Shown here one piece after another: positions 9,273 through 58,998 of a stretch of 64,000 bases of DNA. How positions within the stretch are numbered: position 1 is the first letter of the stretch; each line of letters starts with the position of its first letter. This stretch comes from Dictyostelium discoideum (taxonomy: Eukaryota), in NCBI GenBank assembly GCA_000004695.1, contig CM000151.3:288001-352000 (forward strand). The letters are read 5' to 3'. Both the position numbers and the translations under genes were made by a program. The notes beneath the pieces are model-generated. The model worked only from the letters and a program-made list of their open reading frames with translations, searched no databases and was not told the DNA's origin.

Positions 9273-9662
9273 TTTGGGACAGTATTTGTTCGTTTCACAA
9301 AAAAAACAATTGAAAAAATCTTTCATGGCACTAAAAAAAGATTTTTAAAAAAAAAAAAAATGGATAAAATTTTAAAAAAACGATATCCATTTTGAATAAT
9401 TTAAAAAAAAAATAGGATGTATAAAGATAATCAAAAAAGAAACTTTTTATCCAAAAATGGATAAAGGTAAAATACTAAAAATTAAAATATATATATTAAA
9501 AAAAAAAATTAAATATATTTTTTTTATATATTTATTTTTTTTTTTTTTTTTTTTTTTTCTAAAAATTTAACAAAATAAACATTTTTTCAAAAAAAAAAAA
9601 AAAAAAAAAAAAAAAATTACCTCATTATTCTCGCGCACTCTTTATAATTTAAAAAAATAATA

Positions 9663-11885: not shown

Positions 11886-11936
11886 CAATGTGGTGTTCAA
11901 TTCATTCTAGATAATTTAAATAGTAACTATTATTAA

Positions 11937-12050
11937 CTATTTCTTTATTACTGTTGTGAAATATGGAATATTAATATTATTTATTTCTTGAATATATTCA
12001 TTATCATTAGTTTCAATTTTAATTTCTTTTAAAGTAATGTTATTTGATTT

Positions 12051-12126
<76 letters not shown>

Positions 12127-13916: not shown

Positions 13917-14227
13917 TATTATTTGTTAACATGATATGTTAAGAGTGAGTTTGAATTTTTAAAGTGTTTGAAAAAAAAAAAAGTAAAAAAAAAAAGAAAA
14001 AAAAAAAAAAAGTTGTGATTAGAGATGCTGGAAATGAAAAAAAAATAAAAAAAAAAAAAAAAAAAAATTTGGCAAAAAAAAAAAAAAATTGTTTTTTTTT
14101 ATTTTTTTTATTTTTTTTAAAAACAAGTTTAAACGATCCATCTTCTAATGGTAAAATGATGGGATCATTTAATTTTAATCTCTGAGTGCCGAAGAATTCC
14201 AATGGAGTATGAAGATGTTCAGTTGGT

Positions 14228-15475: not shown

Positions 15476-15583
15476 ATTCTTGTCATCAGTATTGTTACTA
15501 TAATTAATCCATGAGTTTTTTAATTATTGAATTTATATTTGAGAGATTATTATTTAAATGACTAAGAATTTTTTATTTTTTTT

Positions 15584-16540
15584 TTACTTACTATCATTAT
15601 AATCAGTAGCAGTATAGTTTATTGGGTCATCTAGCATTGATTTTAATCTATTATTATCTAATTTTCCTTCAAAATTTTCAATTTCTTGAATTGTTGTCGG
15701 AACTGATTCTAAAGATACTTTTAATAATATTATTGAAGTTGAAACTTGTTCTTTTTCTTTTTCTTTTTCTGATTCAGTTAATATCTTTAATTTTATTATT
15801 AATTTACAAGTGGTAATTAATCTTTTTAATGTTGATCTTTCATTAACCTGATATATAGTTTTGAGGTTTTTAATTATTAGATCAATTGTTAATTTACTAT
15901 TATTACAACTACTACTATTATTATTATTATTATTATCATTACCAATGTTATTTAAATAACATAATAATCCTTTAAAAATATTATCATTTTTTGGAATTTC
16001 ATCTAACTCGATTGATTTCTCACCAAAATCAGTGTTATTTAATGATGTTTCTAATGATGTTGATGATGGTGAGTTTGATTTTTTTAATTCTAAATTCTTT
16101 GATTGTATTATTGCAGTTGATACATAAATTGGTGAAGAGTAATAATACCTTTGAATTTTGAAAAAGTTTCTATTAAATTTGAAATCATTTTTAATTATTT
16201 CAAATAATTTCTTTAAATAAATTAAAATTAAATCTTTACGCCAACTAGATTGATCAGACTCTTTACGCCAACAAGTTTCACCAAATTCTAAATATCTACA
16301 ATTTCTATAAGCTTTTTCTTTTAAAATACTAATTTGATTTGAATCTATTAGTTTAGTTATTGACGATACTGAATCGTAACTAAATGAATATTGGTTATAC
16401 ATAAATGAGAATATCTTTTTATAAATTGCTTTATTTCTAAACAATTTCCAAAATAATATTTCAATTGGTTCTATATTATCTGTAATTGTTAATTTTATTG
16501 AATGAATTAGTATTTTCTTTTCGTTCATGTTCTTCTTCAT
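15584..16540 (-). CDS. ORF1-family protein (318 aa), intact short copy; transposon-associated, function unknown
   Basis: Intact ORF MKKNMNEKKILIHSIKLTITDNIEPIEILFWKLFRNKAIYKKIFSFM.... An identical N-terminal 150 aa occurs in the longer degenerate copy at 55222..57782. Family fragments at 58300-58400 and 63450-64000. Bounded downstream by a truncated palindromic-MITE terminus (15470-15580). Confidence 0.6.
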   Translation of the reverse strand: MKKNMNEKKILIHSIKLTITDNIEPIEILFWKLFRNKAIYKKIFSFMYNQYSFSYDSVSSITKLIDSNQISILKEKAYRNCRYLEFGETCWRKESDQSSWRKDLILIYLKKLFEIIKNDFKFNRNFFKIQRYYYSSPIYVSTAIIQSKNLELKKSNSPSSTSLETSLNNTDFGEKSIELDEIPKNDNIFKGLLCYLNNIGNDNNNNNNSSSCNNSKLTIDLIIKNLKTIYQVNERSTLKRLITTCKLIIKLKILTESEKEKEKEQVSTSIILLKVSLESVPTTIQEIENFEGKLDNNRLKSMLDDPINYTATDYNDSK

Positions 16541-17424
16541 ATTCTCTTTTTCTTTTTTTTTACAATTTTAATCCTTTCAATTATTTCTTGTTTATTTAAG
16601 TGATTTATTTCTATACAATATGATTTTGCAATTTCTTTAATTGATTTTAAATTCTTTTTCTCTAATTCACAATTATTATCATTATCTTTATCATCTTATT
16701 AATTAAAGATGACAAAAATAATTTAAATATATAAATTATTTTTCATTGTTGTGGTGGTGGGGGAAATTAAAAAATAAAAAAAAAAAAATATAAAAAAATA
16801 TAAAAAAAAATATAAAAAAAAAAATAAAAAAAAAAAAAAACAAATAAAAAACATTTTTATGGTGAAACGGATTTTATTTAGTTTTTTTTTTTTTTTTTTT
16901 TTTTTTCTATTTTATTTTTTTTTTTTACTATTTTATTAAATATTTATATTTAAAAAAAAAAAAAAAAAAAACATATAAAAAACATTTTGTAACACTTAAA
17001 AAAAAAAAAAAAAAAAAAAAAATTCAGCGACTCTATTATGGTTTTAAAAAAAAAATGGTAAGTCATAAATATTCACTTAAAATAAACAAAAGTTTTACAA
17101 TCTTTATTATGATATACTAATATTAATTTTAGAAAAAAAAAAAAAAAAAAAAAAATTTTAGTTTAGATTAAAAAATTTTAAAAATAAAGGAATTAAATGT
17201 TATTGAAAATTAAATAAAATTAAATTTATTTATTTATTTATTTATTTATTTATTTGTTTATTTATTTTTTATTTATTTAATGGAATTCCGTTTATATATT
17301 TTTTTTTAATGAAATTTCATTAATTTTTTTTCAATGAAATTTCAAACAAAGAAATAAGCAAATATATATTATTTGTTTATTTCTTTGTTTGAAATTTCGT
17401 TGAACATTATTTTTAAACGAATTC

Positions 17425-17550
17425 AAATGACTACATAACCCCTGTAAGCGGTTAGTATCCCCTTGTAATCCTTACAACCAGTGTAGCCCACAAATCCGGC
17501 CATTCGTCTTACAGGCCTATTAGCCGCTTACAGGGGTTACGTAGTCATTT
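17425..17550. repeat. GC-rich (about 55% GC) 126-bp palindromic element: 27-bp inverted repeats around a 71-bp core with three CTTACAGG motifs
   Basis: AAATGACTACATAACCCCTGTAAGCGG ... CCGCTTACAGGGGTTACGTAGTCATTTT. A second copy in inverse orientation lies at 54262-54400 with 5 substitutions, none compensatory. It stands out sharply in AT-rich surroundings. Confidence 0.55.
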
Positions 17551-18086
17551 TGCTCGTTGGGGGTGTAATTAATATTTATTTATATTTTTATTATGGGCTA
17601 ATTCTTTTTTTATTATTTAATGATAATTTTATATTAAAATATGATATATTATTAATTAATATTAATTTGTTAAAAATTTTATTATATTATAATCTCTTTA
17701 TAAAAAGTGAGAAATTATGTGTCATAAAATATCTAATAAAATAATGAATTTTCTAAAATTTTTTTTTCCAGCGAATAATAAAAAAAAAAAAACTGTTTTT
17801 GTTAACAATGGGGTGAAGATGATTTATTGTAATTTTTTAATAATTTTAGTTCTGTTTTTTTTTTAATGGAGATATGAGAGAGATTATTATGATATTTTGA
17901 ATGATTGGATCATAGTAATAAAACAATATTTTTAATTTTTTTCTTTTTTTTTTTTCTTTTCATTCTTTTTTTTTTTCTTTTCATTCTTTTTTTTTAGTAC
18001 TTAATCTTTTTTTTTTTCATCTTTCAAAATAAAAAAAAAATATTTATATAAATTTTAACTTTAAATTAAAATAAATAAATTTTAGA

Positions 18087-18509
18087 ATGGCTGAAGAATA
18101 TCATCAATTGAAAATTACAATATTTACTGATAAAGGGAGATCAACAATAAGTGGTTTTGGTAAGTTAATTAGAATTATTAATTTATAAATATTTAATTTT
18201 AGTTTATATATTAAAAAATGTAACATTTAATTTCATTCTTCTGGCTTTTTTAAAAATATAGAGTATCCTCAACCTATATTACCTTATCCTGCACCATATA
18301 CTTTTAGATTTTTTCATTACGATATTGAAGGCCCAAATTTAACCAACAAAGAATTTAAAGTAAAAACAGGTAAAATTGAATACAAAGGAGAAGAATTTGA
18401 TATTCCTCCATCATCTAAGGGCTCATGGAGAAGAGAAGATAACCTATTCGATTTAATCTCTGTTACAATATATCCAAGTAGACAACCAAAAAAAGTTTTT
18501 CATTATTAG
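18087..18509 (+). CDS. Small two-exon gene (about 106 aa), hypothetical protein. Exon 1 is 18087..18159, intron 18160..18261, exon 2 18262..18509
   Basis: ATG..GGTTTTG|GTAAGTT donor and TATAG|AG acceptor. The spliced frame gives MAEEYHQLKITIFTDKGRSTISGFEYPQPILPYPAPYTFRFFHYDIEGPNLTNKEFKVKTGKIEYKGEEFDIPPSSKGSWRREDNLFDLISVTIYPSRQPKKVFHY*. A diverged paralog with the same exon/intron structure lies at 53330..53751 (-). Confidence 0.6.
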
Positions 18510-18766
18510 ATCTTAAAAACAGATCTGAAACAATGAAAACAAAAATAAAAAATTTTAAAATTTTTTCATAATTGAATTGATATAAAAAAAAAATTATGAT
18601 TAAAAAAAAAATATGTGTGGAAAAAAAAAAAAATTAAAAATAAAAAATATATTTGTTTATGGTGTTATGTTTTTTGGTAAGGTTTAAAGTGATCAAAAAA
18701 TTATCATTCAAACTTGTATACCAGTGTTCGACCTTTTTCCACATTTGGAAAAAAAGGGTGTCTTTT

Positions 18767-19420
18767 TTAATTTCCCTTCCATTCCATGTTTTTGTTTGAT
18801 TGAGTTGTGATTCCACCATTATTGGAAGTTGTTGCAGCTTCATGTGTTGATCTAACTTCGGTGGTAGAGTGCTCGATTGCTTTTCCAACTAGGTCATCTG
18901 TTGATTTTCTTTTGGTTATTTCGATATCCCTTTGCAATTTATTTTTACTTGAGAGTTTGGTGGCCTCTATTCTAGAAGTAGGCTCAGTATTGTAATAAGC
19001 CTTTATAATAGCAGAATGATTATCTGCTTTATAATGATTACTGATGTGCTGTTGACACTGGTTTTGATTAATCATATGAGAGACACCATCTTCATCTTTG
19101 TTAAGCCTAACCTTCTCTATAATCTTCACTAAGTCTTTTGGGTACCAATTTTTTCTTTTTATCTTTATCAATATAAAACACTTCTTTAATAGTTGCCGTA
19201 CCATATTCTACATTCTCAACAACATACTGTTTATCCAAAATGTTTTTCCAATAGCTTATATTTTGTCCACTCAATTTGGTATTATGAAATTTATAATCTA
19301 TTTTAAATTTTACATCTTCGTCATATTTTTCCAAGAGTTTTTTTAATTTATTTTTATTATTTTTTCAATTTCTGTTGCAGAAAGTTGATTATTTAATTTA
19401 TTGTCTTTACTGAAGACCAT
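18767..19420 (-). pseudogene. ORF-T: repeat-associated coding region split across two overlapping frames (19107..19334 and 18767..19204); probable transposon ORF with a frameshift
   Basis: The MEKYDEDVKFKIDYKFHNTKLSGQ...LVPKRLSEDYREG frame ends where the frame-shifted MVRQLLKK...RLNKDEDGVSHM...EATTSNNGGITTQSNKN frame is already open. A third upstream segment (MVFSKDNKLNNQLSATEIEKIIKIN*) needs another +1 shift. A mirror copy at 60955..61697 (+) has the same frame breaks. Confidence 0.4.
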
Positions 19421-19620
19421 TTTTTGGAACGAAAACTTTAAAAAAATAAAAAAATAAAAAAAAAAATACTTTTTTTTTTTAATTTTTTTTTTTATATTTT
19501 TTTTTTTATATTTTTTTTTTTTAAATTTTTTTTTTTAATTTTTTTTTTTTATTTTATTTTTTTAAAGTTTCGAACAATTATATATAAAAAAAAAGTAAAA
19601 GATATCCCTTCGGTTAATTA

Positions 19621-19689
<69 letters not shown>

Positions 19690-19698
<9 letters not shown>

Positions 19699-20155
19699 TT
19701 CGAAATGTTTAAACAATCATACAGTTTAAAATTAAATAAATTGTTTTAAACCACCACTTTTTTTGAACACATGAAAATAAATAAGATATAAAAATAATAA
19801 GATAAAAAAAGATTTTTTTTTTTTTTTTTTTTTATTTTATAATTATTCTTGTCGTCAGTATTGTTACTATAATTAATCCCATGAGTTTTTTTTATTATTA
19901 TTTTTAATTCTTTTATATTTGAGATGATTATTATTAATTAAATGACTTTGAGTTTTTTTTTTTATTTTTCTATGCCCAAAATTACCATATTAATTTCAGC
20001 AGCCATATTAATTTCAGCCTAAAATAGTTGGTCTGTGCATGCCAAAATTAATATGGCTGCTGAAATTAATATGGTAATTCTAGCAGACATAAGTCCCATG
20101 CCAAAATTACCATATTAATTTCAGCAGCCATATTAATTTTGGCATGGGACACACA
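19690..20155 (+). repeat. Terminus of the palindromic-end MITE family, capping the 15.4-20.2 kb duplicated block
   Basis: Matches the 3955-4420 subterminal and terminal sequence, including the double palindrome ...CCATATTAATTTCAGCAGCCATATTAATTTCAGC...GTCCCATGCCAAAATTACCATATTAATTTCAGCAGCCATATTAATTTTGGCATGGGAC. Preceded by (AAT)n at 19621-19690. Confidence 0.55.
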
Positions 20156-21112: not shown

Positions 21113-21489
21113 TTTTCTTTAATTTTACTGGCAATTAATATCTATCACACCACCAAAAAAAATACCCCATAATTTACATTCCTTTTAAAAAATTATGTAA
21201 AATGTATGTAAATTCATATTATTTTTTGAGTAGTTTTTTAATTTTTTAAGTTGTCGTGGAATTTTTTTATTTTATTTTTTTTTGTTTTTTTATTTTGTTT
21301 TTTTTTTTTTTATTTATTTTTTTTAATTTTTTATTTTCATTAATCCAAAAGGCTTTAAGTATCGATTTCTCTTTTATTTATTCTATTATATTATGTTCTA
21401 ATTTTTGTTGTAGACTTGTTCCGCAACTACAACATTAACTGTGTCACACCCAAACAAATAAAATTAAAAAAAAGATAAAAATAATAATA

Positions 21490-23472
21490 ATGTCAACAAA
21501 AAAAAAAATTAAAACAGATAATAATAATAAAATATTTCAAGATTTTATTGATTTTGAAATTTTAAGATCTTTAATCAATTATTTATTAATCAACAAAACA
21601 AATAATAATAATAATAATAATAATAAATATAAAATTAGTAAATTTTATTTACATAGAAATGAAATATTGAATTATATATTAGTTTCAAAAAAGTGGTATA
21701 ATTTTATATCATTAACAATATCAAATAATATTATTAATAATAAATCATTTGAACATTGGTTAAAAATTAATAATAATAATAATAATAAATCATTTACTAA
21801 AAATTATAATAATCAAAATCGATATGATAAAAATAATTTAATTTTTAATAACAAATATAGTAAAAATAAAATTGGTTTTAATAAAGAATTTTCAATTATA
21901 AAAATCAAAGAATCAATAATCAAAGATTATTTTAAATTCAATTTATTTTTAAGTAATATTACAATTGATGATTTTAAAGAAATTAAAAATAAATTTGAAA
22001 ATAATCAATTAGTTTATAATAGAATTGTTGTTGATATTAAAACTGGCTATTATGGTGAAGGGAATCAAGATGAAATTTTATTTAAAATACATGAATATGT
22101 ATCAAATGAAAATTCAGAAATCATATCAAATTTATTTAAAATATTAGAATTAAATCATGATTTTATGATAATCGATGACTTTCATCCAAAATCTAAAGAA
22201 GAGGATGAAGAGGATGAGGAGGATGATGAAAATGATAAAGGTAGTAAGAAATGTACTGAAATATATTTAAATAATTTATTGGTTTCCGGTTATGATCTAA
22301 CTATGGATGAGGATGAAGATAGAGAATCATTAAAGATATTCAAAATATTTAAAAGTAAAAATATATTTTATGATGGGTCTGGTATTGCTAGTGATATTCC
22401 AACACATGTCAATTATTCAGCATTGTTTGATCCTGATAATTCAGGTCAACAAGTTGAATCGATTAAAGTAAAAAATGAACTTGAAGATCCTGATTTTGTA
22501 GAACCACTCCATTTAATCAAAGTTAATCAATTTAAAAATTTACATTCAATTACAATACCAATTAATTCATTTCAAATATTATCAAACTTATCCGAAGAAA
22601 TGGGATATTTTAGTATCGATTGTTTTAAATCTGGTTTTGGTCTTTCAGATAATATGAAATCAGAATTAAATCAAATGATCAATTCATTCATTACAAGTAA
22701 ATCTTTAAAAAATTTAAAAATAACATCTATTAGTACAAAAGAAGATCCAATTGATTATGATGCTTATTATGATGAAGGTGATCTTCAAACTTTTATGAAT
22801 CAAATAAATGAACCTAAAGAATCATTTTCAAATTGTTTCAAACCATTATTTTCAGAATTAAATACATCAATTGAAAGAATTGAATTTGATTGTTGCGGTT
22901 TATTAAATATCAATACATTTTCAAATTTATTAAATAATAAATCAATTAAATATTTATATTTATATGATAGTGATTTCTTTTTTTCTTCATTAAAAACAAG
23001 TGATGGTGGTAGTGATGATTGTGGTATTGATGATGATGGTGGTAGTGATGATTGTGGTATTGATGATGATGGTGGTAGTGATGATTGTGATGCATATCAA
23101 AAAATTATTTCCATTAATCAATATCTATTTGAAAATATATTTTCATCACCATTAACATCAATTAGACATTACAGAATTAAATTCAAAGAATTAGATGAAT
23201 TAAAATTCATATTTAATTTAATATTAAATAATATTTTTAAATTACAATTATATTCATTAATATTTGAATTCAATGAAAACGAATTAGTTTATGAATTTGT
23301 TAAAGAATTTAAAAATTTAATAAATAATATTTCAATACAAGAACAACAACAACAACAACAAAAATCAAACAACATAAATTTAAAAGAAATTAAAATTATA
23401 ATAAATGATGACTGTTTAGAAGAATTAAATAATCCATATTTCAAAACAACAATAAAGAATAGCCCATATTAA
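21490..23472 (+). CDS. Paralog-array family member 5 (660 aa, intact); contains an internal 3x (DDCGIDDDGGSD) tandem expansion
   Basis: Intact ORF with the family motifs. A 39-nt unit is repeated three times at 22990-23100 inside the variable region that precedes the conserved ISINQYLF motif. Confidence 0.75.
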   Translation: MSTKKKIKTDNNNKIFQDFIDFEILRSLINYLLINKTNNNNNNNNKYKISKFYLHRNEILNYILVSKKWYNFISLTISNNIINNKSFEHWLKINNNNNNKSFTKNYNNQNRYDKNNLIFNNKYSKNKIGFNKEFSIIKIKESIIKDYFKFNLFLSNITIDDFKEIKNKFENNQLVYNRIVVDIKTGYYGEGNQDEILFKIHEYVSNENSEIISNLFKILELNHDFMIIDDFHPKSKEEDEEDEEDDENDKGSKKCTEIYLNNLLVSGYDLTMDEDEDRESLKIFKIFKSKNIFYDGSGIASDIPTHVNYSALFDPDNSGQQVESIKVKNELEDPDFVEPLHLIKVNQFKNLHSITIPINSFQILSNLSEEMGYFSIDCFKSGFGLSDNMKSELNQMINSFITSKSLKNLKITSISTKEDPIDYDAYYDEGDLQTFMNQINEPKESFSNCFKPLFSELNTSIERIEFDCCGLLNINTFSNLLNNKSIKYLYLYDSDFFFSSLKTSDGGSDDCGIDDDGGSDDCGIDDDGGSDDCDAYQKIISINQYLFENIFSSPLTSIRHYRIKFKELDELKFIFNLILNNIFKLQLYSLIFEFNENELVYEFVKEFKNLINNISIQEQQQQQQKSNNINLKEIKIIINDDCLEELNNPYFKTTIKNSPY

Positions 23473-23481
23473 CCATCAGTA

Positions 23482-23523
<42 letters not shown>

Positions 23524-23625: not shown

Positions 23626-23895
23626 TTTTTTTTTTTTATATAAATAAATAATTTACCTTTTGATTTGGAAATATAATTTATTTTATTTTGTTTGTTGTAG
23701 GGAATTTTCCATAAAATTTCACTACAGTAGCGTAGTGAATTTTATTATTTAATTTCACTACAGTAGCGTAGTGAAAAAAAAAAATCACTGACCTTAAATT
23801 TTTTTTTTTTTCAAAAAACAAATAAAGTTTATTAAATTGAAATTTTATTTTTTGTTTTAATTATTATTTTATTTATTTTTATTATAATTATTGTT

Positions 23896-23935
<40 letters not shown>

Positions 23936-24076
23936 CAATTTTTTTTTTTTAAATTTTTTTCAATTTTTATTTGTTTATTAAATTGTAATTTTATTTTTTG
24001 TTTTAATTATTATTTTATTTATTATTATTGTTAATTTTTTTTTTTTTTCAATTTTTTTTTTTTTAATTTATTTTTA

Positions 24077-24385
24077 TTAATTTATTTTTATTAACTCCCT
24101 GAGTTGTTCAATTGCTTGATTTACCATATCACTGTAAACACTGCACACAATTGAATTTTTTCTAGCTTTGTTACCTCTGGTGCATTTGATGTTTTTGCAT
24201 TTTCCTTTGTATACAAAAAAGTCCAAATATAATTCGTTTTCTATTACAGTTTTTACACAATGTTGGTGAAATTGTTTTGATTTTAATTCTAATGCTTCTA
24301 ACATCATATTTGGATTTTTAACGATTAAAGCATCACCACTATTTACATATAGTACTTTGGCTGCTTTTTCGAGGAATTTAGTCAA
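24077..24385 (-). CDS. Hypothetical ORF (102 aa) inside the Tdd-4-like element
   Basis: Open frame LEKAAKVLYVNSGDALIVKNPNMMLEALELKSKQFHQHCVKTVIENELYLDFFVYKGKCKNIKCTRGNKARK.... A possible short upstream exon at 24386-24480. No recognisable domain. Confidence 0.3.
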   Translation of the reverse strand: MTKFLEKAAKVLYVNSGDALIVKNPNMMLEALELKSKQFHQHCVKTVIENELYLDFFVYKGKCKNIKCTRGNKARKNSIVCSVYSDMVNQAIEQLRELIKIN

Positions 24386-24842
24386 ATTTTCCTCTGAATC
24401 TAACTATTCTTCATTGCCATATTCAATGGCTAAATTTCTTAAGAGTTTTATCGAATCTATTAATTCTTCGATCATTCTTTTTTTTTGAAATTTTTTTTTA
24501 TTTTGTTTTTTCAATTTTTTTTTTTTATTTTGTTTTTTCAATTTTTTTTAAGTTTTATTTTTTTTTATTTTTTTTTATTTTTTTTAACAAATGTAATTTT
24601 TTTTTATTTTTTTCAATTTTTTTTTTTTTTTAATTTTTAATTTTTTTTTTTTTTTTTAATTTTTTGTGTTGATTTGTGTTTTTTTTGTTTTTTTGATTTG
24701 GCCACTTGTTTTTATTTTCTAATTTCCCCATACCCCCTTCTATTAATTGCAACCAAATCAAGTTCTAATTTTTGTGTCCTTGTTAACTTTGTTTTTGCAA
24801 CTTTTTTTGAAGGTATCACATTAACGATTTTTCCTATTGATG

Positions 24843-25042
24843 GTGATTTGGAAGGTGATTTAAATGGTGATTTAAAAGGTGAATTGGAAGGTGATTTAAA
24901 TGGTGAATTGGAAGGTGAAATGGATGGTGATTTGGAAGGTGATTTAAATGGTGATTTGGAAGGTGATTTTAATGGTGATTTAAATGGTGAATTGGAAGGT
25001 GAAATGGATGGTGATTTGAGAGGTGATTTGGATGGTTTAGAA
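24843..25042. repeat. 15-bp tandem repeat (GGTGATTTRRAWGGT, about 13 units); possible subterminal transposase-binding repeats
   Basis: Direct tandem units in the DNA. Translates in the + frame to GDLEGDLNGDLKGELEG..., but more likely non-coding. Its reverse complement carries the AAATCACC motif that is also tandemly repeated inside the R elements. Confidence 0.5.
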
Positions 25043-26121
25043 TGTGATTTTAAAGGAGGTTTATTAACAATTGGTAGGACGGGAGGACGGCCTCTGAACA
25101 GTTGTTACTATACCACTATACCATTACCAGATTGTGGTATAGTATACGATGGTATTATTTGCACTTGAGGTAACTATTTCTTTTAATCTTTTAAATTCAT
25201 ATCCTTTCTCAAACAATTCATTAAATTTGGCGCTGTTAGATTATTATTTAAAAATGGGAGTATTTCTTCTTGTTCCATTTCATTATTGAGTTTGTGTTGA
25301 AATGGATTATCGTTAATGATAGGTGGAATATTTGATGGATTGTTAATAGCATCTTCCAAAACCCTAAATGGATCATTTTGTGTTACCAATTGATGCAAGT
25401 TGAAATTGGATAAATCCTTACCAAGATTTTTAATAAACTGAACCAAAAATTCAATAACTTTCCCATCATTATTTAAATAAAGACCAGAAGTAAAAGAATC
25501 AATATCTTTTTGTATGTTTGGCGATGTTCTAAAAATATCAACTGTTGATTGTTTATAAAGAACCAACTTGTTACCTCCTACAAAACCAGAGTATAAACCT
25601 TTTTTTTGAAGGCTATTGATTCCATCTTCCAAAAATTCAAGTTTATAAAGTTGTTTAGTGTCTTCCTGTATTACCTTATGAATTTTACACAAAATCAATA
25701 TTTTCTATTAGAATTAAATATAAAATTTGTTAATTATTACTGTTTCATATATTATTAATCTTTATGTTTTAATTACTTACATTATTTTTTTTAATTTCTA
25801 GAAAGAGTACAGTATCACCAACTTTCAATCCCTTTGGTGGTTTTGAATTCCATTGATTTTGGTAACTTGTGAGATTTTCAAGAATAATAGCTGTTCTTTC
25901 TTCTTTTGAAACATCTGAAACACCAATTGATTGAGAGTCTTGTTCTGATTGAACATTAATAAACAAAGGAACAATACCAACAGCTTGAGATGGTGTCATT
26001 TTAATTGTTCTTGTTTTTGTATTATTGTAATCATACAAAGCTTGTTTTAATAGTTCAGAAAGAGACCTAGAAGTACCATCAAGAAAACTAAAATTTATTT
26101 ATAAATGATTAATTAATAAAC

Positions 26122-26873
26122 ATCACAGCAAAGAAAAAACCACCTTTAAATTCGCTTTAAATTAAATTTAAATTTGCTTTAAAGTCCTGAATTAAAGCAA
26201 TTTTAAAGGTAATTTTTAAGGTTACTTTAAAATCACCTTAAAAATTACCTTTAAAATTACCTTTAAAATTACCTTTTTAATGGCTTTAAAAGCGAGGTCC
26301 TGAGTTCGAATCCGTTATTTAACGGATAAATTTTTTAAAATTTTTTTTTTAATTTTTCAAAAATTACCCAAAAGGGATTCGATCCCCCGACCCTCTATCA
26401 AAGGGTAGTCTCATCAACCATTACACCATTTGATTGCTTTGATGAAAAATTTAAAAATGATAGAATATTTTATCCCCATTTTTTTGTGCTAAAATTAGAT
26501 CTTTTTTATTAAAAATCTTAAATTTATGTTTAAAGGAAATTTAAATTCACTTTAAATCTACTTTTAATCTACTTTAAATCCTATTTAAAATTAATTTAAA
26601 ATAAATTTTAAAGGTATTTTTAAATATCTTAAAAATTATCTTAAAAATTACCTTAAAAATCACCTTTAAAATCACCTTTAAAATCACCTTTAAAATTGCT
26701 TAAAAATTTATTTTAAAGCAAATTTTAAAGGCATTTTTAAATATCTTAAAAATTACCTTAAAAATTACCTTAAAAATGAATTTTTTAAACGCGGCTTTAA
26801 ATTCAATTTAAATCCAATTTAAATCAACTTTTCTTTAAATTTGCTTTAAAGGTGCATTTTTCTTTGCTGTGAT
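26122..26873. mobile_element. R element copy 1 (about 750 bp, MITE-like) inserted in the transposase gene
   Basis: 12-bp terminal inverted repeat ATCACAGCAAAG / CTTTGCTGTGAT. Internal tandem AAATCACCTTT and AAATTACCTTT repeats. Internal tRNA-like segment with A-box and B-box. Flanked on both sides by AT. A second copy at 27678..28458 is more than 98% identical in the same orientation. An R-like fragment also lies inside a MITE at 35100-35200. Confidence 0.6.
26374..26437 (-). ncRNA. tRNA-like module inside R element (A-box TGGTGTAATGG, anticodon-arm-like ACCCT/TTGATAG/AGGGT, B-box GGATCGAATCC); lacks an acceptor stem, so a tRNA-derived / SINE-like promoter module
   Basis: The minus strand reads GCAATCAAATGGTGTAATGGTTGATGAGACTACCCTTTGATAGAGGGTCGGGGGATCGAATCCC. 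The T-arm and anticodon arm fold, but the 3' acceptor strand does not pair with the 5' end. An identical module lies in R2 at 27959..28022. Confidence 0.4.
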
Positions 26874-27677
26874 ATCGATAATTTATATTGTTCACAATAT
26901 CATACTCTTGTTGTTTTAATTTTGAGATCCTCTCCTTGATAGTTCGATTCAATCTTTCTACCATACCTTGAGTTGTTGGTGTACGAGGAGCTCCATGTGC
27001 TGACTTGGAGCCTGGAAAAAGTTTTAGGAATTCTTTTTGGACTTTGTTTTTAAATTCACGTCCATTATCGCAGTGCCATACTTTCACAGGTTTGCCAAAG
27101 TACGTGAGAGCCAAAAAATTGTATATGGGAACTGTTCTCTTTGTTGTCAAACATCTAAAAAATAAATGATAATTAAAATAAAAAAAGAAAACTAATAAAT
27201 TAATAAATAAAAAATAAATACCTTCCAGTAGCAAATTTTGTAAAAGAATCTATGCATAGAATAATGTAAACAACATCGGTGTCGTACGGTTGTACAGAGT
27301 CATATTGGATAAGATCATCTAGTTTAGTTAGTATCTTTTCATTATCATCATCGTATGTAACTTTTTCTTTATGTTCACCTTTAATTGATGTTAAATCATA
27401 AACCAATCTTGAGTATTCCTCGGTATCTACAATTGGAGCAAAATCCTTTGTTATACCTATTAATTTATTTAAATTATTAAAAGAGTTTTAATATAAAAGT
27501 TACAAAACATCATATAAAAATGATTGATACCAAACCTTTTATTCTATTTCGTTGGCAAATGTCACACGTATCTACTGCATCAGATACAAAAGAATACAAT
27601 CCCATATTATAATATTTAGTCTTGTAGTTCCCATAGGTTGCATCTCTTCCTATATGACCTTTATGCATTTCTTCCCA

Positions 27678-28458
27678 GAGTGATACCATCACAGCGAAGA
27701 AAAAACCACCTTTAAATTCGCTTTAAATTAAATTTAAATTTGCTTTAAAGTCCTGAATTAAAGCAATTTTAAAGGTAATTTTAAAGGTAATTTTTAAGGT
27801 TACTTTAAAATCACCTTATTTAATATTTATTTATAGGCTTATCATTTAAGCTGAAGGGTTATTTTAATGGCTTTAAAAGCGAGGTCCTGAGTTCGAAGCC
27901 GTTATTTAACGGATAAATTTTTTAAAATTTTTTTTTAATTTTTCAAAAATTACCAAAAGGGATTCGATCCCCCGACCCTCTATCAAAGGGTAGTCTCATC
28001 AACCATTACACCATTTGATTGCTTTGATGAAAAATTTAAAAATGATAGAATATTTTATCCCCATTTTTTTGTTCTAAAATTAGATCTTTTTTATTAAAAA
28101 CCTTAAATTTATGTTTAAAGGAAATTTAAATTCACTTTAAATCTACTTTAAATCTACTTTAAATCCTATTTAAAATTAATTTAAAATAAATTTTAAAGGT
28201 ATTTTTAAATATCTTAAAAATTATCTTAAAAATTACCTTAAAAATCACCTTTAAAATCACCTTTAAAATCACCTTTAAAATTGCTTAAAAATTTATTTTA
28301 AAGCAAATTTTAAAGGCATTTTTAAATATCTTAAAAATTACCTTAAAAATTACCTTAAAAATGAATTTTTTAAACGCGGCTTTAAATTCAATTTAAATCC
28401 AATTTAAATCAACTTTTCTTTAAATTTGCTTTAAAGGTGCATTTTTCTTTGCTGTGAT
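27678..28458. mobile_element. R element copy 2 (MITE-like) inserted in an exon of the transposase gene
   Basis: Same TIRs and internal structure as 26122..26873. Removing it plus one flanking AT dinucleotide joins ...EVCLEVINDYR to MVSLWEEMHKGHIGRD... in frame. Confidence 0.6.
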
Positions 28459-28743
28459 TCTATAATCATTAATTACTTCTAAACACACTTCTTTTGATAT
28501 ATTTCTATCTCCGCCACAATTCATGACTTTTTTTTCAATTCTAAATAATTTTTCTTTTCTGTTTCTGTTTTTTATTGGTCAGAATTTAAAAAATGATTGT
28601 GTTATTGTAAGGAAAAATATTTACTCATCATGTAAAAATTTATAATTTTTATGTTTAGTATTTTCAAAATTATTATCTTCAATAAATTTTAAATAATTTA
28701 TAATTTCATTTATTTTATCTTGTTTCATTTTGGGAAAATGAAA

Positions 28744-28778
<35 letters not shown>

Positions 28779-29313
28779 TGTTGGGGAAAAAAAAAAAAAG
28801 TTTTGGCGCAAAAAAAAAAAAAAAAATTAAATAAAAAAAAAAAAAAATTAAATAAAAAAAAAAAAAAATAAAAAAACTTATATAGAACTAATAATCAAAT
28901 AAAAGATAATAATTTAATAAACTTTATTTGTTTTTTGAAAAAAAAAAAATTTAGGGTCAGTGATTTTTTTTTTTCACTACGCTACTGTAGTGAAATTAAA
29001 TAATAAAATTCACTACGCTACTGTAGTGAAATTTTATTGAAAATTCCCTACAACATTGTTCGATGAAAATGAGAAGATTTTTTTTATCCCAGTTGTAGTG
29101 AAAAAATTAAATAATATTTTTAAATTACAATTATATTCATTAAAATTTGAAAAAAAATAATAAAAAAAAAAAAAAATTTTTGGCTTTTAAGATTTATGGA
29201 GAATTATCCATCAAAAAAAAAAAAAAAAAAAAAAGGTTAAAAAAAAAAAAAAGGTTAAAAAAAAAAAAAAAATTAAACTTTTTTTTAAAAACTTATTCTT
29301 AAAACAAATAAAA

Positions 29314-31125
29314 ATGTTAACAAATAAAAAAATTAAAACAGATAATAGTAATAAAATATTTTCAAATACTAATGATAATGAAATTTTAAGATCTTTAATC
29401 GATTATTTATTAATCAGCAAAAACAATAAAACAAATAATAATAATAATGCAAATCAATATAAAATTAAAAAAATTTTAATAAATAGAAATGAAATATTCA
29501 ATTATATATTAGTTTCAAAAAAGTGGTATAATTTTATATCATTAACAATATCAAATAATATTATTGATAATAAATCATTTGAACATTGGTTAGAAATTAA
29601 TTATACAAAAAAATCATATACTAAAAATAATAATAATCAAATTCAATATGATAAAAAGAAAATTAATTTTAATAAAAAGTTTTCAATTATAAAAATCCAA
29701 GAATCAATAATCAATGATTATTTTAAATTCAATTTATTTTTAGATAATTTTACAATTAATTATTTTAAAGAAATTAAAGATAAATATGAAAATAATCAAT
29801 TAGATTATAAAAGAATAGTTGTTAATCTTAAAACTAATTCTGGTGGTAATAAAAAAATTTTATTAAATATAAATGAATATGTATCAAATGAAAATTCAGA
29901 AATCATACCAAATCTATTTAAAATATTAGAATTAAATTCTGATTTTAAGTTGGACAAGTGCTATATTCCAATATCTGAAGGTACTGAAATATATTTAAAT
30001 AATTTATCGATTTCTGGTTATGAGGGTATAACATCGAAGATATTCCAAATTTTCAAAAGTAAAAAGATAATTTATGATGGGTCTTGTTGTCCAACAAATG
30101 TCAATTATTCAAAGATATTTGATCCAGATAATTCAGGCCAACAAGTTGAATCGATTAAAGTTAAAAATGAAAGTGGTAATAAACAGTTTGTTGAACCACA
30201 TCATTTAATTAAAGTTTACCAATTTGAAAATTTACATTCAATCACAATACCAATGGATTCATTTCAAATATTATCAGGCTTTTCTGAAAAAATGGGATTC
30301 AATAAATTTGATATGAATAATAAATATCCAGGTAATTCGAAAAATATGGAATCAGAATTAAATCAAATGATCAATTCATTCATTACAAGTGAATCTTTAA
30401 AGAATTTAAAAATATCATCAGTATGTTCACAATACGTTATTTTTAAAATGAATATTGATAAAATAAATCAAATTAAAGAATCAATTTCAAAATCATTTAA
30501 ACCATTATTTTCAGAATTAAATACATCAATTGAAAGAATTGAATTAGATTGTGGTGGTATATTAAATATCAATACATTTTCAAATTTATTAAATAATAAA
30601 TCAATTAAATATTTATATTTATATGATAGTGATTTTATTGTTTATTCATTTAAACAAACTGGTGGTGGAAGTTATTGTAGTATTAATCAATTTCTATTTG
30701 AAAATATATTTTCATCACCACAAACATCAATTAAACATTATGGATTTTGCTTCAAAAAATCAAATGAACTCGAATTAATATTTAATTTAATATTAAATAA
30801 TATTTTTAAATTACAACTATATTCATTAATATTTGTATTAAATAAAAACGAATTAATTGAGAAATTTGTTAAAGAATATGGAAAATTTATAAAAAAAATT
30901 TCAACACTAATACAAAAACCACAACAAGAACAACAAGAAAAACAAGAACAAGAACAACAACCACAGGAAATACAAAATTTAAATTTAAAAGAAATTAAAA
31001 TTAAAATTAAAATTAAAATAAAATTATTTTAAAATTAAATATAATCAATATTTTCAAGAATTAAAAAATTTAAAAAATCCATATTTCACAACAGTAATAG
31101 AGAAAACGGTTAATATTAATGGTTA
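29314..31125 (+). pseudogene. Paralog-array family member 6 (572-aa ORF 29314..31032 plus a frameshifted C-terminus); lacks the acidic variable insert
   Basis: Family motifs are present. After the stop at 31032 the NPYFTTVIEK C-terminal motif continues in another frame (31040-31125). Could be a real frameshift or a homopolymer sequencing error. Confidence 0.55.
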
Positions 31126-31764
31126 AAAAAATATAAAAATTATAACACTCAATCAAATACTAAAACAAAAAACTTTTCAATTAAAAATCAAAACAATCTT
31201 GATGCTGAATCAATTTTTAAACCAATTAAACATAAAATTCATTCAACAGGTAAACCAACTACCCATGCCGTACCATCAACCACAACTGCTCCATCAACTA
31301 CTGGTGCTGAATCATCAGCCCCTACTGGTTCATCAACTACTCTTGCTGTATTACCATCACCACTACTGTACCATCAACCACAACTGCTCCATCAACTACT
31401 GTTTCACAAACTACTCATGCTGTATTACCATCACCACTACTGGTTCATCAACCACCCATGCTACACCATCCACCACTAGTGACTAACCAACTACTCGTGC
31501 TGCACCATAATATATATAATAATAAATAAATAAATAAATAAATAAATAAAAAGAATAAATAAATAAAAAAAAGATAAAAATTAAAATTGAATACCATCTT
31601 TCAATATTTTTTTTTTTATTGGTATCATTCGTTTTAATATGGTATCATTCGTTTTATTGGTGTAAGACTAGAGAAATTATTAGGTGTAGTTGGTGAAAAT
31701 TCAACATTCCCAATTGAAAGTATGGCAATATCAAGAAATAATCATTATTTAGGTAGTATTTCTC

Positions 31765-34904: not shown

Positions 34905-35322
34905 TCAAATTGGACACCCAAAAAAATTTTCATTTTATTTTTCATTTTTTTTTTTTTTTTTTTTACAAACAATAATTTAAATTTATTAATTCTTAATATG
35001 AATTAAGTATAGATAAATAGAGCACTCAAAAATACACAAAATGATATAAAAATTAAAAAAAATGAATGTAATCATTCTGTTTTTTGAATTTTTTATTTTA
35101 CTTTTTAAATCAAAATAAATTTTAAAGGCATTTTTAAATATCTTAAAAATATCTTAAAAATCACCTTTAAAATTATTTACCATTCATTCGTTTTTATCAA
35201 TAAAAAATAAAATTAGAAAAAAAAAAGAAAATTGTGATTTTTTTTTTTTTTTTATTTTTTTATTTTTTTTTTTTATTTTATTTTTTTTTTTTTTTTGGTT
35301 GTCCAATTTGAATGCTGTTATC
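34905..35322. mobile_element. Small MITE (about 420 bp) with 22-bp TIRs CATTCAAATTGGACACCCAAAAA; the interior carries an R-like AAATCACC repeat fragment
   Basis: ACATTCAAATTGGACACCCAAAAAA at 34905 and its reverse complement TTTTTGGTTGTCCAATTTGAATG at 35297-35322. A solo TIR copy at 34706-34730 overlaps the CMTR1-like ATG. A related copy lies at 43276-43520. Confidence 0.5.
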
Positions 35323-35359
35323 AACCAAAAAAAAAATATAACAACTTAAACAAAAAATA

Positions 35360-37456
35360 ATGTCAAAAAATAAAAAAACTAAAACAGATAATAAAATATT
35401 TCAAGATGTTATTGATTTTGAAATTTTAAGACCTATAATCAATTATTTATTAATCAGCAAAAATAAAAATAATAATAATAATAATAATAATAATACTAAT
35501 AGTAATCAATATAAAATTAATAAATTTTATTTAAATAGAAATGAAATATTAAATTATATATTAGTTTCAAAAAAGTGGTATAATTTTATATCATTAACAA
35601 TATCAAATAATATAATTAATAATAAATCATTTGAAAATTGGTTAGAAATTAATAATAATAATAATAATAATAATAAATCATTTATTGAAAATTATAATAA
35701 TCAAAATCAATATGATAAAAATAATTTAATTTTTAATATTAAAAATGAAAAACCAAATTATTATAATCAAAAACGAAATAATACAGTTTTTAATAACAAA
35801 GAAGATAAACAAAATAAAATTAGTTTTAATAAAGAGTTTTCAATTATAAAAATCAAAGAATCAATAATCGATGATTATTTTAAATTCAATTTATTTTTAG
35901 ATGATATTACAATTGATGATTTTAAAGAAATTAAAAATAAATTTGAAAATAACCAATTACTATATAATAGAATTGTAGTTAATCTTAAAACTAGTGGTAA
36001 TAATACTTTATTTGAAATAAATGAATATGTATCAAATGAAAATTCAGAAATCGTATCAAATTTATTTAAAATATTAGAATTAAATTTTGATTTTTGGTTG
36101 GAGGATGGTTATAGTGCAAAATATGAAGAGTTGGAGGAGGAGGATGATCATGGTGGTAAGAAATGTACTGAATTATTTTTAATAAATAATTTATCAATTT
36201 CTGGTTTTAATATTAGTATAGGTAATGATGAAACATTAAAGATATTCAAAAATTTCAAAAGTAAACATATAATATATGATGGGTCAGATGATGTTGATAA
36301 TTATCAAGCGCATGCCAATTATTCAGTATTATTCGATCCAGATAATTCAGGTCAACAAGTTGAATCAATTAAAGTACAAAGTAAACATGGTAATAAAGAG
36401 TCTGTTGAACCACTCCATTTGATCAACGTTAATCAATTTGAAAATTTACATTCAATTACAATACCAATAAATTCAATTCTATTATTATCAGAGATATCTA
36501 AAGAAATGGGCTTTTATGGATTCTATGATGGAAATGCATATTCAAGTTTTACTGGAGATGTCAAATCAGAATTAATCGAAATGGTCTTTTCAATCGCTAC
36601 AAGTGAATCTTTAAAGAATTTAAATATAACATCAATCAATTTTGAACAATATCCAATTAATTTCCAAGATTACGCTCACTATTATTTATCTCTTCCTGGT
36701 GGTGGTGGTCTTGAATTTTTTGCAAACAAAATAAATGAAATTATAGAACAATTTTCAAATTCATTTCAACCATTATTTTCAGAATTAAATACATCAATTG
36801 AAAGAATTGAATTTGATTGTTGTGGTTTATTAAATATCAATACATTTTCAAATTTATTAAATAATAAATCAATTAAATATTTATATTTATATAATAGTGA
36901 TTTCATTGTTTATTCATTAAAACAAAATGATAGTGGTAGTGGTAGTATGAAGCAAATGCATAAAGAACCTATTTCAATTAATCAATATTTATTTGAAAAT
37001 ATATTTTCATCACCATTAACATCAATTAGACATTATAAAATTAATTTCAAAGAATCAAAACAAATCAAACCAGTATTTAATTTAATATTAAATAATATTT
37101 TTAAATTACAATTATATTCATTAATATTTGTATTAAATAAAAGTAAATTAATTGGTGAATTTGTTAAAGAATTTAAAAATTTAATAAATAATATTTCAAT
37201 ACAACTACAACATCAACAAGAACAACAACAACAACAAGAACAACAAAAACAAAAATTAAATAATATAAATTTAAAAGAATTTAAAATTAAAATTGAAATT
37301 GAAAATAAAATTAAAATTAAAATCAAAGATAAAAATGAAATTAAAATTAATGAAAGGTATATTCAAGAATTAAATAATATTGATAATCCATATTTCACAA
37401 CAGTAATAAAGAAGATAGTTAGAAATGAAACCCCAAAAAAAAATTATCGAAAATAA
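35360..37456 (+). CDS. Paralog-array family member 7 (698 aa, intact; the longest, with extra N-rich insert and KIKIEIENKIKIKIK tail repeat)
   Basis: Intact ORF with the family motifs (LFDPDNSGQQVESIKV, NPYFTTVIKK). Confidence 0.75.
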   Translation: MSKNKKTKTDNKIFQDVIDFEILRPIINYLLISKNKNNNNNNNNNTNSNQYKINKFYLNRNEILNYILVSKKWYNFISLTISNNIINNKSFENWLEINNNNNNNNKSFIENYNNQNQYDKNNLIFNIKNEKPNYYNQKRNNTVFNNKEDKQNKISFNKEFSIIKIKESIIDDYFKFNLFLDDITIDDFKEIKNKFENNQLLYNRIVVNLKTSGNNTLFEINEYVSNENSEIVSNLFKILELNFDFWLEDGYSAKYEELEEEDDHGGKKCTELFLINNLSISGFNISIGNDETLKIFKNFKSKHIIYDGSDDVDNYQAHANYSVLFDPDNSGQQVESIKVQSKHGNKESVEPLHLINVNQFENLHSITIPINSILLLSEISKEMGFYGFYDGNAYSSFTGDVKSELIEMVFSIATSESLKNLNITSINFEQYPINFQDYAHYYLSLPGGGGLEFFANKINEIIEQFSNSFQPLFSELNTSIERIEFDCCGLLNINTFSNLLNNKSIKYLYLYNSDFIVYSLKQNDSGSGSMKQMHKEPISINQYLFENIFSSPLTSIRHYKINFKESKQIKPVFNLILNNIFKLQLYSLIFVLNKSKLIGEFVKEFKNLINNISIQLQHQQEQQQQQEQQKQKLNNINLKEFKIKIEIENKIKIKIKDKNEIKINERYIQELNNIDNPYFTTVIKKIVRNETPKKNYRK

Positions 37457-38440: not shown

Positions 38441-38564
38441 AAAATTTAATAAAAATAAAATATAAAAAAAAAATAAAATAAAAATTTCTAAAAGTTTGGC
38501 AAACAAAAAAAAAATAAGTTTTTTATTCAAAACATACTCTTTATAATTTTTAAAACAAATAATA

Positions 38565-38675
38565 ATGTCAACAAATAAAAAAATTAAAACAGATAATAAT
38601 AATAATAATAAAATATTTCAAGAAATTATTGATTTTGGAATTTTAAAATCTTTAATCGATTATTTATTAATCAAC

Positions 38676-38746
<71 letters not shown>

Positions 38747-46375: not shown

Positions 46376-46484
46376 ACTTTCTAAAAAAAAAACCAACTAC
46401 CAATCAAAAGATTTTTTTTTTTTTTTTTTTTTTATTTTTTTTTTTTTTTTTAATTTGTCAGACTCTTAAAAATTTAAACAAATA

Positions 46485-54850: not shown

Positions 54851-54883
<33 letters not shown>

Positions 54884-58958: not shown

Positions 58959-58998
<40 letters not shown>

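Follow-up and report, generated by a model that had tools for sequence, protein, structure and literature searches.

Two short non-coding DDT-type elements nested in one Tdd-4 transposon of Dictyostelium discoideum

A single Tdd-4 copy in the window (the whole stretch of 64,000 nucleotides of Dictyostelium discoideum DNA analyzed here) holds two independently inserted copies of a short repeated element, R, one in an exon and one in an intron. We consider it highly probable that these copies, R1 and R2, represent two independent cut-and-paste insertions of a non-coding element of ∼760 bp, which belongs to the DDT class and has a CACTA-like partner, into a Tdd-4 that was previously full-length. 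R consists of an imperfect terminal inverted repeat (TIR) of ∼27 bp that opens with CACAG, of 12-bp subterminal repeats extending over several hundred bp, and of a core derived from a tRNA, and is most probably a short non-autonomous relative of a ∼5.2-kb element with which it shares ends, repeats, and target-site duplication (TSD).

Results

The host element (Ginger2/TDD; Table 1) is bounded by long inverted arms (23693-23935 and 28813-29055) and is collinear, at 96-99% identity, with the Tdd-4 copies in loci L004, L005, and L006. Its integrase-like exons display the motifs HHCC, DNGREF, and GMVERLN and are 92-97% identical to Tdd-4 proteins of AX4. In its present state the element measures 5363 bp; subtracting R1, R2, and their duplicated AT leaves 3844 bp. 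The published TDD-4 is 3839 bp long and generates a 5-bp TSD (PMC2836005).

Both R copies lie inside this Tdd-4 in the same orientation, 0.8 kb apart, and are flanked on both sides by AT, just as a sequence-only reading of this DNA had described them. That reading placed the start of R2 at 27678; the element in fact begins at 27690, or at 27688 with its AT. It also put the identity of the two copies above 98%, a figure that we revise to 97.1% over aligned columns (∼94.4% by BLAST with gaps). Identity exceeds 99% only outside two differences: a 12-bp repeat unit missing from R1 relative to the 760-bp canonical copy, and a 46-bp patch in R2 (27816-27862). The patch is present neither at the same locus in assembly GCA_054883475.1, where the copy is canonical (L007 16184-16941), nor in any other copy.

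In every full copy both ends carry the TIR, CACAGC[A/G]AAGAAAAA...; it is imperfect over ∼27 bp, with the first 15 nt identical and ∼25 of 27 positions matching when the following CACCTTTAAA is included; the R-type terminus reads CACAGCRAAGAAAAA. Within the window, the 12-mer ATCACAGC[A/G]AAG is confined to the four element ends (4 matches versus 0.16 expected, a count reached in 0 of 100 shuffles). The adjoining AT belongs to the target-site duplication and not to the TIR. The longest ORF of R comprises 37 codons of repeat sequence. We considered CACAACAATGAAAAA, found at 16753 (minus strand) and 55009 (plus strand), as possible termini of a larger element related to R and rejected it as a chance match; an ordinary duplicated gene (...caacaATGaaaaa...) has this sequence at its 5′ end.

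Empty sites prove that insertion of R was precise. The Tdd-4 copies of L004, L005, and L006, which we examined for sites lacking R, are uninterrupted at both positions, reading aataaacAT|atcgataa at the R1 site and gataccAT|tctataat at the R2 site. The exon that R2 entered codes for the HHCC zinc-finger N-terminus; the element separates the codons of ...DYR from those of MVSLW..., and AX4 proteins read DYRMVSLW without interruption at this site. Conceptual removal of R2 and one AT yields ...EVCLEVINDYRMVSLWEEMHKGHIGRDATY... in one frame, a reading that AX4 protein DDB_G0292352 and three further gene models share exactly and that agrees with the frame restoration proposed from the sequence. The same proposal had suspected that R1, where the frame is restored poorly, might sit at an exon/intron edge; R1 lies inside an intron, which accounts for the poor restoration. 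This intron is 68 nt long in empty Tdd-4 copies and 818 nt here, and its splice, KLKQQ|DFLDGT, is common to six independent gene models (gene predictions, not cDNA). Since R2 splits the HHCC-domain exon and R1 lengthens the 68-nt intron to 818 nt, this Tdd-4 copy is, as judged from its sequence, inactivated. The view of R as a non-autonomous element that moves by cut and paste and inserts precisely with a 2-bp duplication is likewise supported, and empty-site alleles, whose absence would have spoken against insertion, exist in three Tdd-4 copies.

We weighed whether R might instead be integral to a variant of Tdd-4, or whether R1 and R2 might have arisen from one another by local duplication or gene conversion. 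Their shared orientation, 0.8-kb spacing, and AT flanks would suit such an origin, as would the fact that the arrangement is common to two assemblies, being present at the same locus in the one other assembly compared (GCA_054883475.1; L007/L008). However, R is missing from exactly these two sites in three Tdd-4 copies, and each R copy has its own TSD. Moreover, at least five diagnostic sites group R1 with L5b/L5e and R2 with L5a/L5c/L5d, and the closest relatives of R1 (99.9%) and R2 (97.6%) lie at other loci, each nearer than R1 and R2 are to one another (97.1%). Both versions of this alternative are therefore very improbable; because R1 and R2 belong to different subfamilies, they are independent insertions.

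R is a dispersed, young family, represented by 16 copies in the ∼250 kb sampled, and its copies are 98-99.9% identical; identities of up to 99.9% between copies suggest recent mobility. Its insertions also lie in retroelements, DDT-type elements, and other sequence. The 2-bp flanks match in 14 of 16 copies (TA eight times, AT three times, TT twice, AA, and GT) and fail to match in the other two. By our own estimate flanks would match by chance in ∼0.12 of copies, so that at least 14 matches in 16 have P ∼1e-11. The TSD of R is thus any dinucleotide, mostly of A and T; the expectation that all insertions would be flanked by AT or TA is contradicted by the occurrence of TT, AA, and GT.

Autonomous DDT-type elements fall into two clades, and CACAG termini and a 2-bp TSD are common to R and both. 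The clade 2 element (L010 10844-16790) is ∼5.2 kb long, or 5187 bp after removal of a nested R, contains an 861-codon open frame, and has a TSD of AA/AA. Its first 29 nt are identical (29/29) to the reverse complement of the right end of R, and its ∼300 bp of subterminal sequence, which likewise carries TTTAAAATCACC-type repeats, is 65-68% similar to that of R and shares its GTCCT indel pattern. Clade 1 (L009 5978-12222; L002 from 17004) has CACAGGGGCG ends, a TSD of TA/TA, 12-13-bp subterminal repeats (ACTTAATAAGTAT arrays), and minus-strand A/B-box modules.

The clade 2 element bears directly on the hint, given in the sequence-only reading, that R parasitizes Tdd-4, which would make it a non-autonomous derivative moved by the integrase-like transposase of Tdd-4. 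In its favor are the position of R inside Tdd-4, R copies lying 0-67 bp from Tdd-4 ends in L001 and L005, and a Tdd-4 12-bp repeat (24842-25036) that is 10/12 identical to the R 12-mer and 82.7% identical over 52 nt. We find it extremely improbable. The termini of Tdd-4, TGTTGTAGGGAATTTTCC..., share nothing with the CACAGC... ends of R, Tdd-4 duplicates 5 bp (TTGTT) where R duplicates 2 bp, R also occurs in retroelements, DDT-type elements, and other sequence, and the L010 element, with identical termini, is a far better partner. As to the repeat, the kinship proposed for AAATCACC lies in coding sequence (KSPx) present in all Tdd-4 proteins, and its similarity to R is probably coincidental; the period of the Tdd-4 array, previously given as 15 bp, is 12 bp (with supra-periods of 24 and 36). 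The AAATCACC 12-bp repeats of R, its termini, and its TSD length instead match a different autonomous element, one with a CACTA-type transposase. The stretch at 35100-35200, described before as a small MITE, turns out to be a 70-bp fragment that lacks CACAG termini (Table 1).

Duplications of 2 bp usually stem from Tc1/mariner-type MITEs, and the most frequent TSD of R is TA (8/14), as would be expected of a Stowaway-like element. Assigning R to that group nevertheless appears highly unlikely, given that the TSD is not TA in 6/14 cases (AT, TT, AA, GT), that long arrays of subterminal repeats accompany termini beginning with CACAG, and that the element bearing R's ends encodes a Transposase_21-related protein instead.

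The relationship of this protein to Transposase_21 emerged from profile comparisons. A profile search started from the DDT-type transposase reaches proteins that pass Pfam PF02992 (Transposase_21). With hhalign, the DDT-type profile reached a probability of 81.8% when compared with one PF02992-passing protein. Compared with an alignment in which most proteins are PF02992-positive, it reached 98.3% (E = 1.2e-14, 539 columns). The motifs D, D, CxxC, and E are paired; candidate catalytic residues are the D of LLRIFTD, the D of LTMDIPE, and the E of SAExFE. Scanned directly against Pfam, the Dictyostelium DDT-type proteins gave no match, and an AlphaFold2 model of one such protein, P0038, has a mean pLDDT of 33. 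Profile-profile homology thus indicates that the DDT-type transposase is detectably homologous to, and probably a divergent, distant relative of, the CACTA/En-Spm Transposase_21 enzymes. Its nearest relatives outside Dictyostelium are metagenome proteins; the R terminus itself had no match in a metagenome scan.

Between its subterminal arrays R contains a tRNA-like module (position ∼250-320 of R) that reads towards the nearer end, with an A-box-like TGGTGTAATGG, a pseudo-anticodon loop TTGATAG, and a B-box-like GGGGGATCGAATCCC, and that does not form a foldable tRNA. Within the window, GWTCGAATCC is confined to the R copies (3 matches versus 0.01 expected). The plus strand carries a second B-box-like motif followed by a perfect hairpin, ATCCGTTA-TT-TAACGGAT, and a T run. 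ARAGORN calls a tRNA-Ile(GAT) at the equivalent module of an older R copy (L001 11914-11985). In the cores of R1 and R2, neither ARAGORN nor Rfam reports a tRNA, even at E≤10, and the fold z-scores of the R core are not significant; we therefore call the core only tRNA-derived, with A/B-box-like motifs. We also considered preferential conservation of the core and rejected it, as identities between old and young copies of 0.90-0.93 in the center and 0.82-0.89 in the arms differ too weakly to imply constraint.

The A-box and B-box motifs, together with the tRNA-Ile-like call in one old copy, raise the question of whether R could be a SINE-like retroposon of tRNA origin that RNA polymerase III transcribes. 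We assign this reading practically no probability: R has TIRs, a fixed 2-bp TSD, and precise empty sites, it ends without a 3′ A-rich or simple-repeat tail, and its tRNA-like module is internal and has no Rfam tRNA score.

Table 1. Positions in the window of R1, R2, the host Tdd-4, and related features.
Feature	Position	Strand	Basis or remark
Host Tdd-4, complete	23693-29055	- (genes)	inverted arms, collinearity, integrase-like exons
Tdd-4 TSD TTGTT	left 23688-23692; right 29056-29060	.	matches published 5-bp TSD
Tdd-4 coding 12-bp repeat (KSPS/KSPF...; KSPx)	24842-25036	-	belongs to host, not R
Tdd-4 integrase intron (GTATGA...TTTTAG) holding R1	26088-26905	-	donor/acceptor read from sequence
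R1, 748-bp non-autonomous DDT-type element, subfamily A	26124-26871	+	99.9% identical to L005 13264-14023
R1 TSD AT	26122-26123 and 26872-26873	.	single AT in empty sites
R1 subterminal arrays, degenerate 12-bp repeats (TTTAAAATCACC / TTAAAAATTACC)	26540-26824 and 26143-26291	+	same repeats in subterminal region of the L010 element
R2, 767-bp non-autonomous DDT-type element, subfamily B	27690-28456	+	empty sites, protein reading
R2 TSD AT	27688-27689 and 28457-28458	.	on minus strand one AT is first two bases of Met codon
R2 subterminal arrays, degenerate 12-bp repeats (TTTAAAATCACC / TTAAAAATTACC)	27709-27815 and 28125-28409		
Patch private to the window's R2, scrambled sequence replacing canonical repeats	27816-27862	+	not a family feature
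tRNA-derived core	R1 26372-26442; R2 27957-28027	-	A-/B-box-like motifs, degenerate
Second B-box-like motif	R1 26304-26313 (GTTCGAATCC); R2 27891-27900 (GTTCGAAGCC)	+	followed by hairpin and T run
Relic of ∼70 bp resembling R/DDT-type subterminal repeats, without termini	35100-35175	+	91% identical to R positions 470-539

Discussion

By analogy with CACTA elements, the transposase for R would be supplied in trans, would recognize the subterminal 12-mers, and would cut at the CACAG ends; integration at a 2-nt staggered cut would then duplicate 2 bp, which could be any dinucleotide but would mostly consist of A/T.

The class to which R belongs, DDT, has been known since 2001; the DDT elements of D. 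discoideum (DDT-A, DDT-B, and DDT-S) were reportedly catalogued by Glockner et al. in that year. DDT-S, which we take to be a short DDT member without ORFs, fits R (760 bp, non-coding). As DNA transposons, DDT elements, which come from the same organism as R, are classed apart from Tdd and thug (PMC5633606). In DDT-B, which is ∼5.5 kb long, a tRNA-like A/B-box motif lies internally, no more than ∼430 nt from one end (PMC9012585), much as in the clade 1 element of L002, whose A/B-box module also lies near an end. Since Tdd, DDT, and thug are the only classes and the A/B-box motif matches DDT-B, R is probably the published DDT-S, a name that we reach by exclusion and description.

Among transposons elsewhere, the CMC group (CACTA/En-Spm, Mirage, Chapaev) offers close parallels. 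CMC termini begin with CAC and the TSD is 2-4 bp, and En/Spm carries subterminal 12-bp motifs that bind TnpA; R, similarly, has termini starting with CAC, many short subterminal repeats, a short TSD, and a partner whose protein is homologous to Transposase_21, with the D, D, CxxC, and E motifs aligned. R differs from classical CACTA elements in having CACAG rather than CACTA termini and a TSD of 2 bp rather than 3 bp, and its partner's transposase has diverged too far to match Pfam directly. CMC elements are not known to have an A/B-box module of tRNA origin such as is found in R and the autonomous DDT-type elements. Tdd-4 (Ginger2-TDD) is, like R, a TIR DNA transposon of D. discoideum, but uses an integrase-type enzyme, in contrast to the Transposase_21-type protein of R's partner. 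R further resembles classical MITEs (Stowaway/Tourist) in that it has no coding capacity, is bounded by TIRs, occurs in multiple copies of uniform size, and shares its termini with an autonomous partner; however, at 760 bp it stands at the upper size limit, its TSD is not TA/TAA-specific, and, rather than being a minimal TIR pair, it still has long arrays of subterminal repeats and a tRNA-like module inside.

Insertion of one transposon into another is common in D. discoideum, and the nesting of R in Tdd-4 is an ordinary case, albeit a useful worked example of precise insertion. From the R family the DDT class gains a TSD defined as 2 bp and a consensus for its TIR. The homology of the DDT-type transposase to Transposase_21 may interest transposon specialists: a 2017 review saw no DDT transposase recognizably similar to known transposases (PMC5633606), and among the papers searched none places DDT elements in a superfamily.

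The A/B-box motif of DDT-B is a shown target of TRE5-A retrotransposons (PMC9012585), and the short element R keeps a tRNA-derived A/B-box core like this target. A bolder idea, which we regard as rather doubtful, is that the module of R and of both autonomous DDT-type clades might be a working TFIIIC/RNA polymerase III site, each insertion being a decoy tRNA gene; we know of no CACTA-type DNA transposon family described as spreading such polymerase III landing pads. If it were true, the decoys could attract TRE5, TRE3, and DGLT-A, or act as a chromatin boundary, and either role would help to build the transposon nests seen here.

Insertion of R1 and R2 into Tdd-4

R1 and R2, two copies of the small non-coding transposon R, are real and form a cleanly delimited pair nested in one Tdd-4, as the sequence-only reading had proposed. 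The motif ATCACAGC[A/G]AAG matches four times against 0.16 expected, only at their four ends, and the terminal inverted repeat (TIR) of R begins CACAGC[A/G]AAGAAAAA... The start of R2 had been placed 10 bp off, and the identity of the two copies, put at >98%, was measured as 97.1% over aligned columns, because R1 lacks one 12-bp repeat unit and R2 has a 46-bp patch (27816-27862). The patch, which reads like scrambled canonical repeats, is absent from all other R copies. In a second D. discoideum assembly (GCA_054883475.1), collinear with the window and 99.4% identical over 22 kb, R2 (locus L007, 16184-16941) is canonical at the patch and otherwise identical to the window's copy. The patch is therefore either a strain-specific cluster of private mutations or a sequence artefact of local quality.

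Removing R1, R2 and one AT each leaves a host of 3844 bp; the published TDD-4 measures 3839 bp and has 5-bp target-site duplications (TSDs; PMC2836005). When one AT is retained per site, an integrase-like protein can be read from the minus strand; it contains the motifs HHCC, DNGREF and GMVERLN. Three Tdd-4 copies outside the window (sampled loci L004, L005 and L006) are uninterrupted at both positions, so empty-site alleles, whose absence would have spoken for R as an integral part of the element, do exist. At both sites the alignment blocks of these copies with the window overlap by exactly 2 bp; the empty sites read aataaacAT/atcgataa (R1) and gataccAT/tctataat (R2), and the occupied sites AT-CACAGC...GCTGTG-AT. 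R1 and R2 are insertions, and the proposed mechanics, precise insertion with a 2-bp duplication, were right. R2 disrupts the HHCC exon, and its conceptual removal restores the reading frame: four gene models, AX4 DDB_G0292352 among them, span the site with EVINDYRMVSLWEEMHKGH, exactly as reconstructed from sequence. R1 lies inside a 68-nt intron, since all six gene models covering the region splice KLKQQ/DFLDGT, and enlarges it twelve-fold.

An internal deletion of 388 bp, common to two of the other Tdd-4 copies (L004 ~9693-9699; L006 ~8203-8209; window equivalent 27094-27481), takes out the integrase exon GITKDFAP...FATGR, which the AX4 and ACTFIT gene models skip (NRIK/VWHCDNG). The window's copy and that in L005 are of the full-length form.

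Coordinates of features in the window and, where a locus (L002, L009, L010) is named, in sampled DNA outside it
Feature	Position	Strand	Remarks
Tdd-4 host	23693-29055		~240-bp inverted arms; 5-bp duplication TTGTT/TTGTT
Tdd-4 coding repeat ATTTAAATCACC	24842-25036	minus	KSPx
Tdd-4 intron holding R1	26088-26905	minus	68 nt when empty, GTATGA...TTTTAG
R1	26124-26871		flanked AT/AT
R2	27690-28456		flanked AT/AT
Clade-2 element	L010 10844-16790		5187 bp after nested R removed; one 861-codon frame; TSD AA/AA
Clade-1 elements	L009 5978-12222; L002 from 17004		TSD TA/TA (L009)
Paralogous ~2-kb gene units, first five	400-2490, 6620-8620, 9512-11516, 11924-13969, 21451-23520
Paralogous ~2-kb gene units, next five	29213-31172, 35260-37448, 38449-40313, 45079-45918, 46412-48517
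mir-7131 hairpins	4311-4399, 20048-20136, 60037-60125	both	Rfam
tRNA-Val(AAC), genuine gene	59021-59095	minus	Rfam 57.9 bits; B box GTTCGATTCC

The R family

We found 16 R copies in ~250 kb of sampled DNA, including copies in Tdd-4, DDT-type elements and retroelements; six lie within 18 kb in L005. Canonical R is 760 bp and non-coding (longest ORF 37 codons). Young copies are 98-99.9% identical and older ones ~80-92%. At ≥5 diagnostic positions R1 groups with L5b and L5e and R2 with L5a, L5c and L5d (all copies in L005), so the two are independent arrivals from two subfamilies and not mutual duplicates. The 2-bp flanks match in 14 of the 16 copies. The predicted AT/TA duplication thus held in length but not in sequence (TA eight times, AT three, TT twice, AA and GT), and the AT at R1 and R2 is a true target-site duplication whose sequence differs between copies. 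Across the 16 copies the targets share no consensus other than being rich in A/T.

Relation of R to Tdd-4 and to DDT-type elements

The suggestion that R parasitises the Tdd-4-like transposase proved wrong: Tdd-4 ends (TGTTGTAGGGAATTTTCC...) are unrelated to those of R, and the TSD is 5 bp in Tdd-4 versus 2 bp in R. The AAATCACC array cited as a link repeats every 12 bp and is coding: every Tdd-4 protein contains the resulting KSPx repeats. The repeat of the array matches the R/DDT subterminal 12-mer TTTAAAATCACC at 10 of 12 positions (82.7% over 52 nt), probably by chance in A/T-rich DNA. At 35100, the supposed small MITE proved to be a relic of 70 bp that lacks termini.

Adjoining R copies are ORFs of a Dictyostelium-only protein, in two clades, to which a Pfam scan gave no match. 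The first 29 nt of the clade-2 element are the reverse complement of the R right end; its other end matches the R left end, with indels and a GTCCT motif in common, and its subterminal region shares the TTTAAAATCACC repeats. This autonomous element is nested in another copy of its family (L010 7016-18519), 10 bp from where R copy L5c sits in homologous L005 sequence. Clade-1 elements start CACAGGGGCGAAAAT...CACCTTTAAA, followed by ~250 bp of ACTTAATAAGTAT repeats. Next, at ~850 bp upstream of their ORF, come two or three tRNA-like modules with A and B boxes on the minus strand; the elements carry the tRNA-Val(AAC) gene's B-box variant GTTCGATTCC. This layout fits DDT-B, for which an A/B-box motif near its end has been published (PMC9012585).

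Only three DNA-transposon classes, Tdd, DDT and thug, are reviewed for this species (PMC5633606). Exclusion of the other classes, together with the architecture of R, makes it a short DDT-type element, an already-catalogued kind behaving as expected. We take it most likely to be DDT-S.

The tRNA-like core

The centre of R carries B-box-like motifs, matched elsewhere in the window only by the slightly different GTTCGATTCC of tRNA-Val. ARAGORN and Rfam called no tRNA at the R1/R2 core module, which folds no better than shuffled sequence; its conservation is slightly above that of the arms. ARAGORN called tRNA-Ile(GAT) at this module in one old, truncated copy abutting a Tdd-4 end (L001 11914-11985), whose module can fold thanks to a single C that young copies lack. 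The core is a relic, which might bind TFIIIC.

Superfamily of the DDT-type transposase

We built a profile from 14 DDT-type proteins; among 1.84 billion representatives it picked up ~30 distant proteins. Four of 20 tested passed the Pfam threshold for PF02992 (Transposase_21), the CACTA 'tnp2' family, and a fifth fell 0.8 bits short. With hhalign, the profile matched one passing protein with 81.8% probability and an alignment of eight distant proteins with 98.3% (E 1.2e-14, 539 columns), pairing LLRIFTD/LILNTDG, LTMDIPEFR/LVVADAPAR, CHTCD/CNTCE and HLLLHYP.YIKNWGAP..SAE.FE/HQLTHMVLYVRRWGSL..SAFSFE. The predicted structure (pLDDT 33) was too low in confidence to judge the fold. This homology, taken with termini that start CAC..., arrays of subterminal repeats and a TSD of short length, places the family with CACTA/Mirage/Chapaev-type transposons.

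Genomic setting and proposed mobilisation

The window has ~20% G+C and long A/T tracts, and its top protein matches are D. discoideum AX4 proteins. It holds at least 10 paralogous ~2-kb gene units (73-85% nucleotide identity) whose asparagine-rich proteins of 570-660 aa have no Pfam match on record; two (ORFs 21490-23472 and 29314-31032) bracket the Tdd-4. A large inverted duplication (15582-20151 versus 53107-62200, 91-99% identity) holds mir-7131 hairpins and a duplicated gene start that mimicked the R terminus. The window's three palindromic mir-7131 hairpins (94-99 bits, gathering score 74) are probably thug-S copies, because multicopy D. discoideum miRNA loci are located in thug-S repeats according to the literature.

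We propose that the clade-2 transposase mobilises R in trans by way of the ends and 12-mers that the two elements have in common. R would be enriched within other transposons because such insertions would be harmless in a compact haploid genome.
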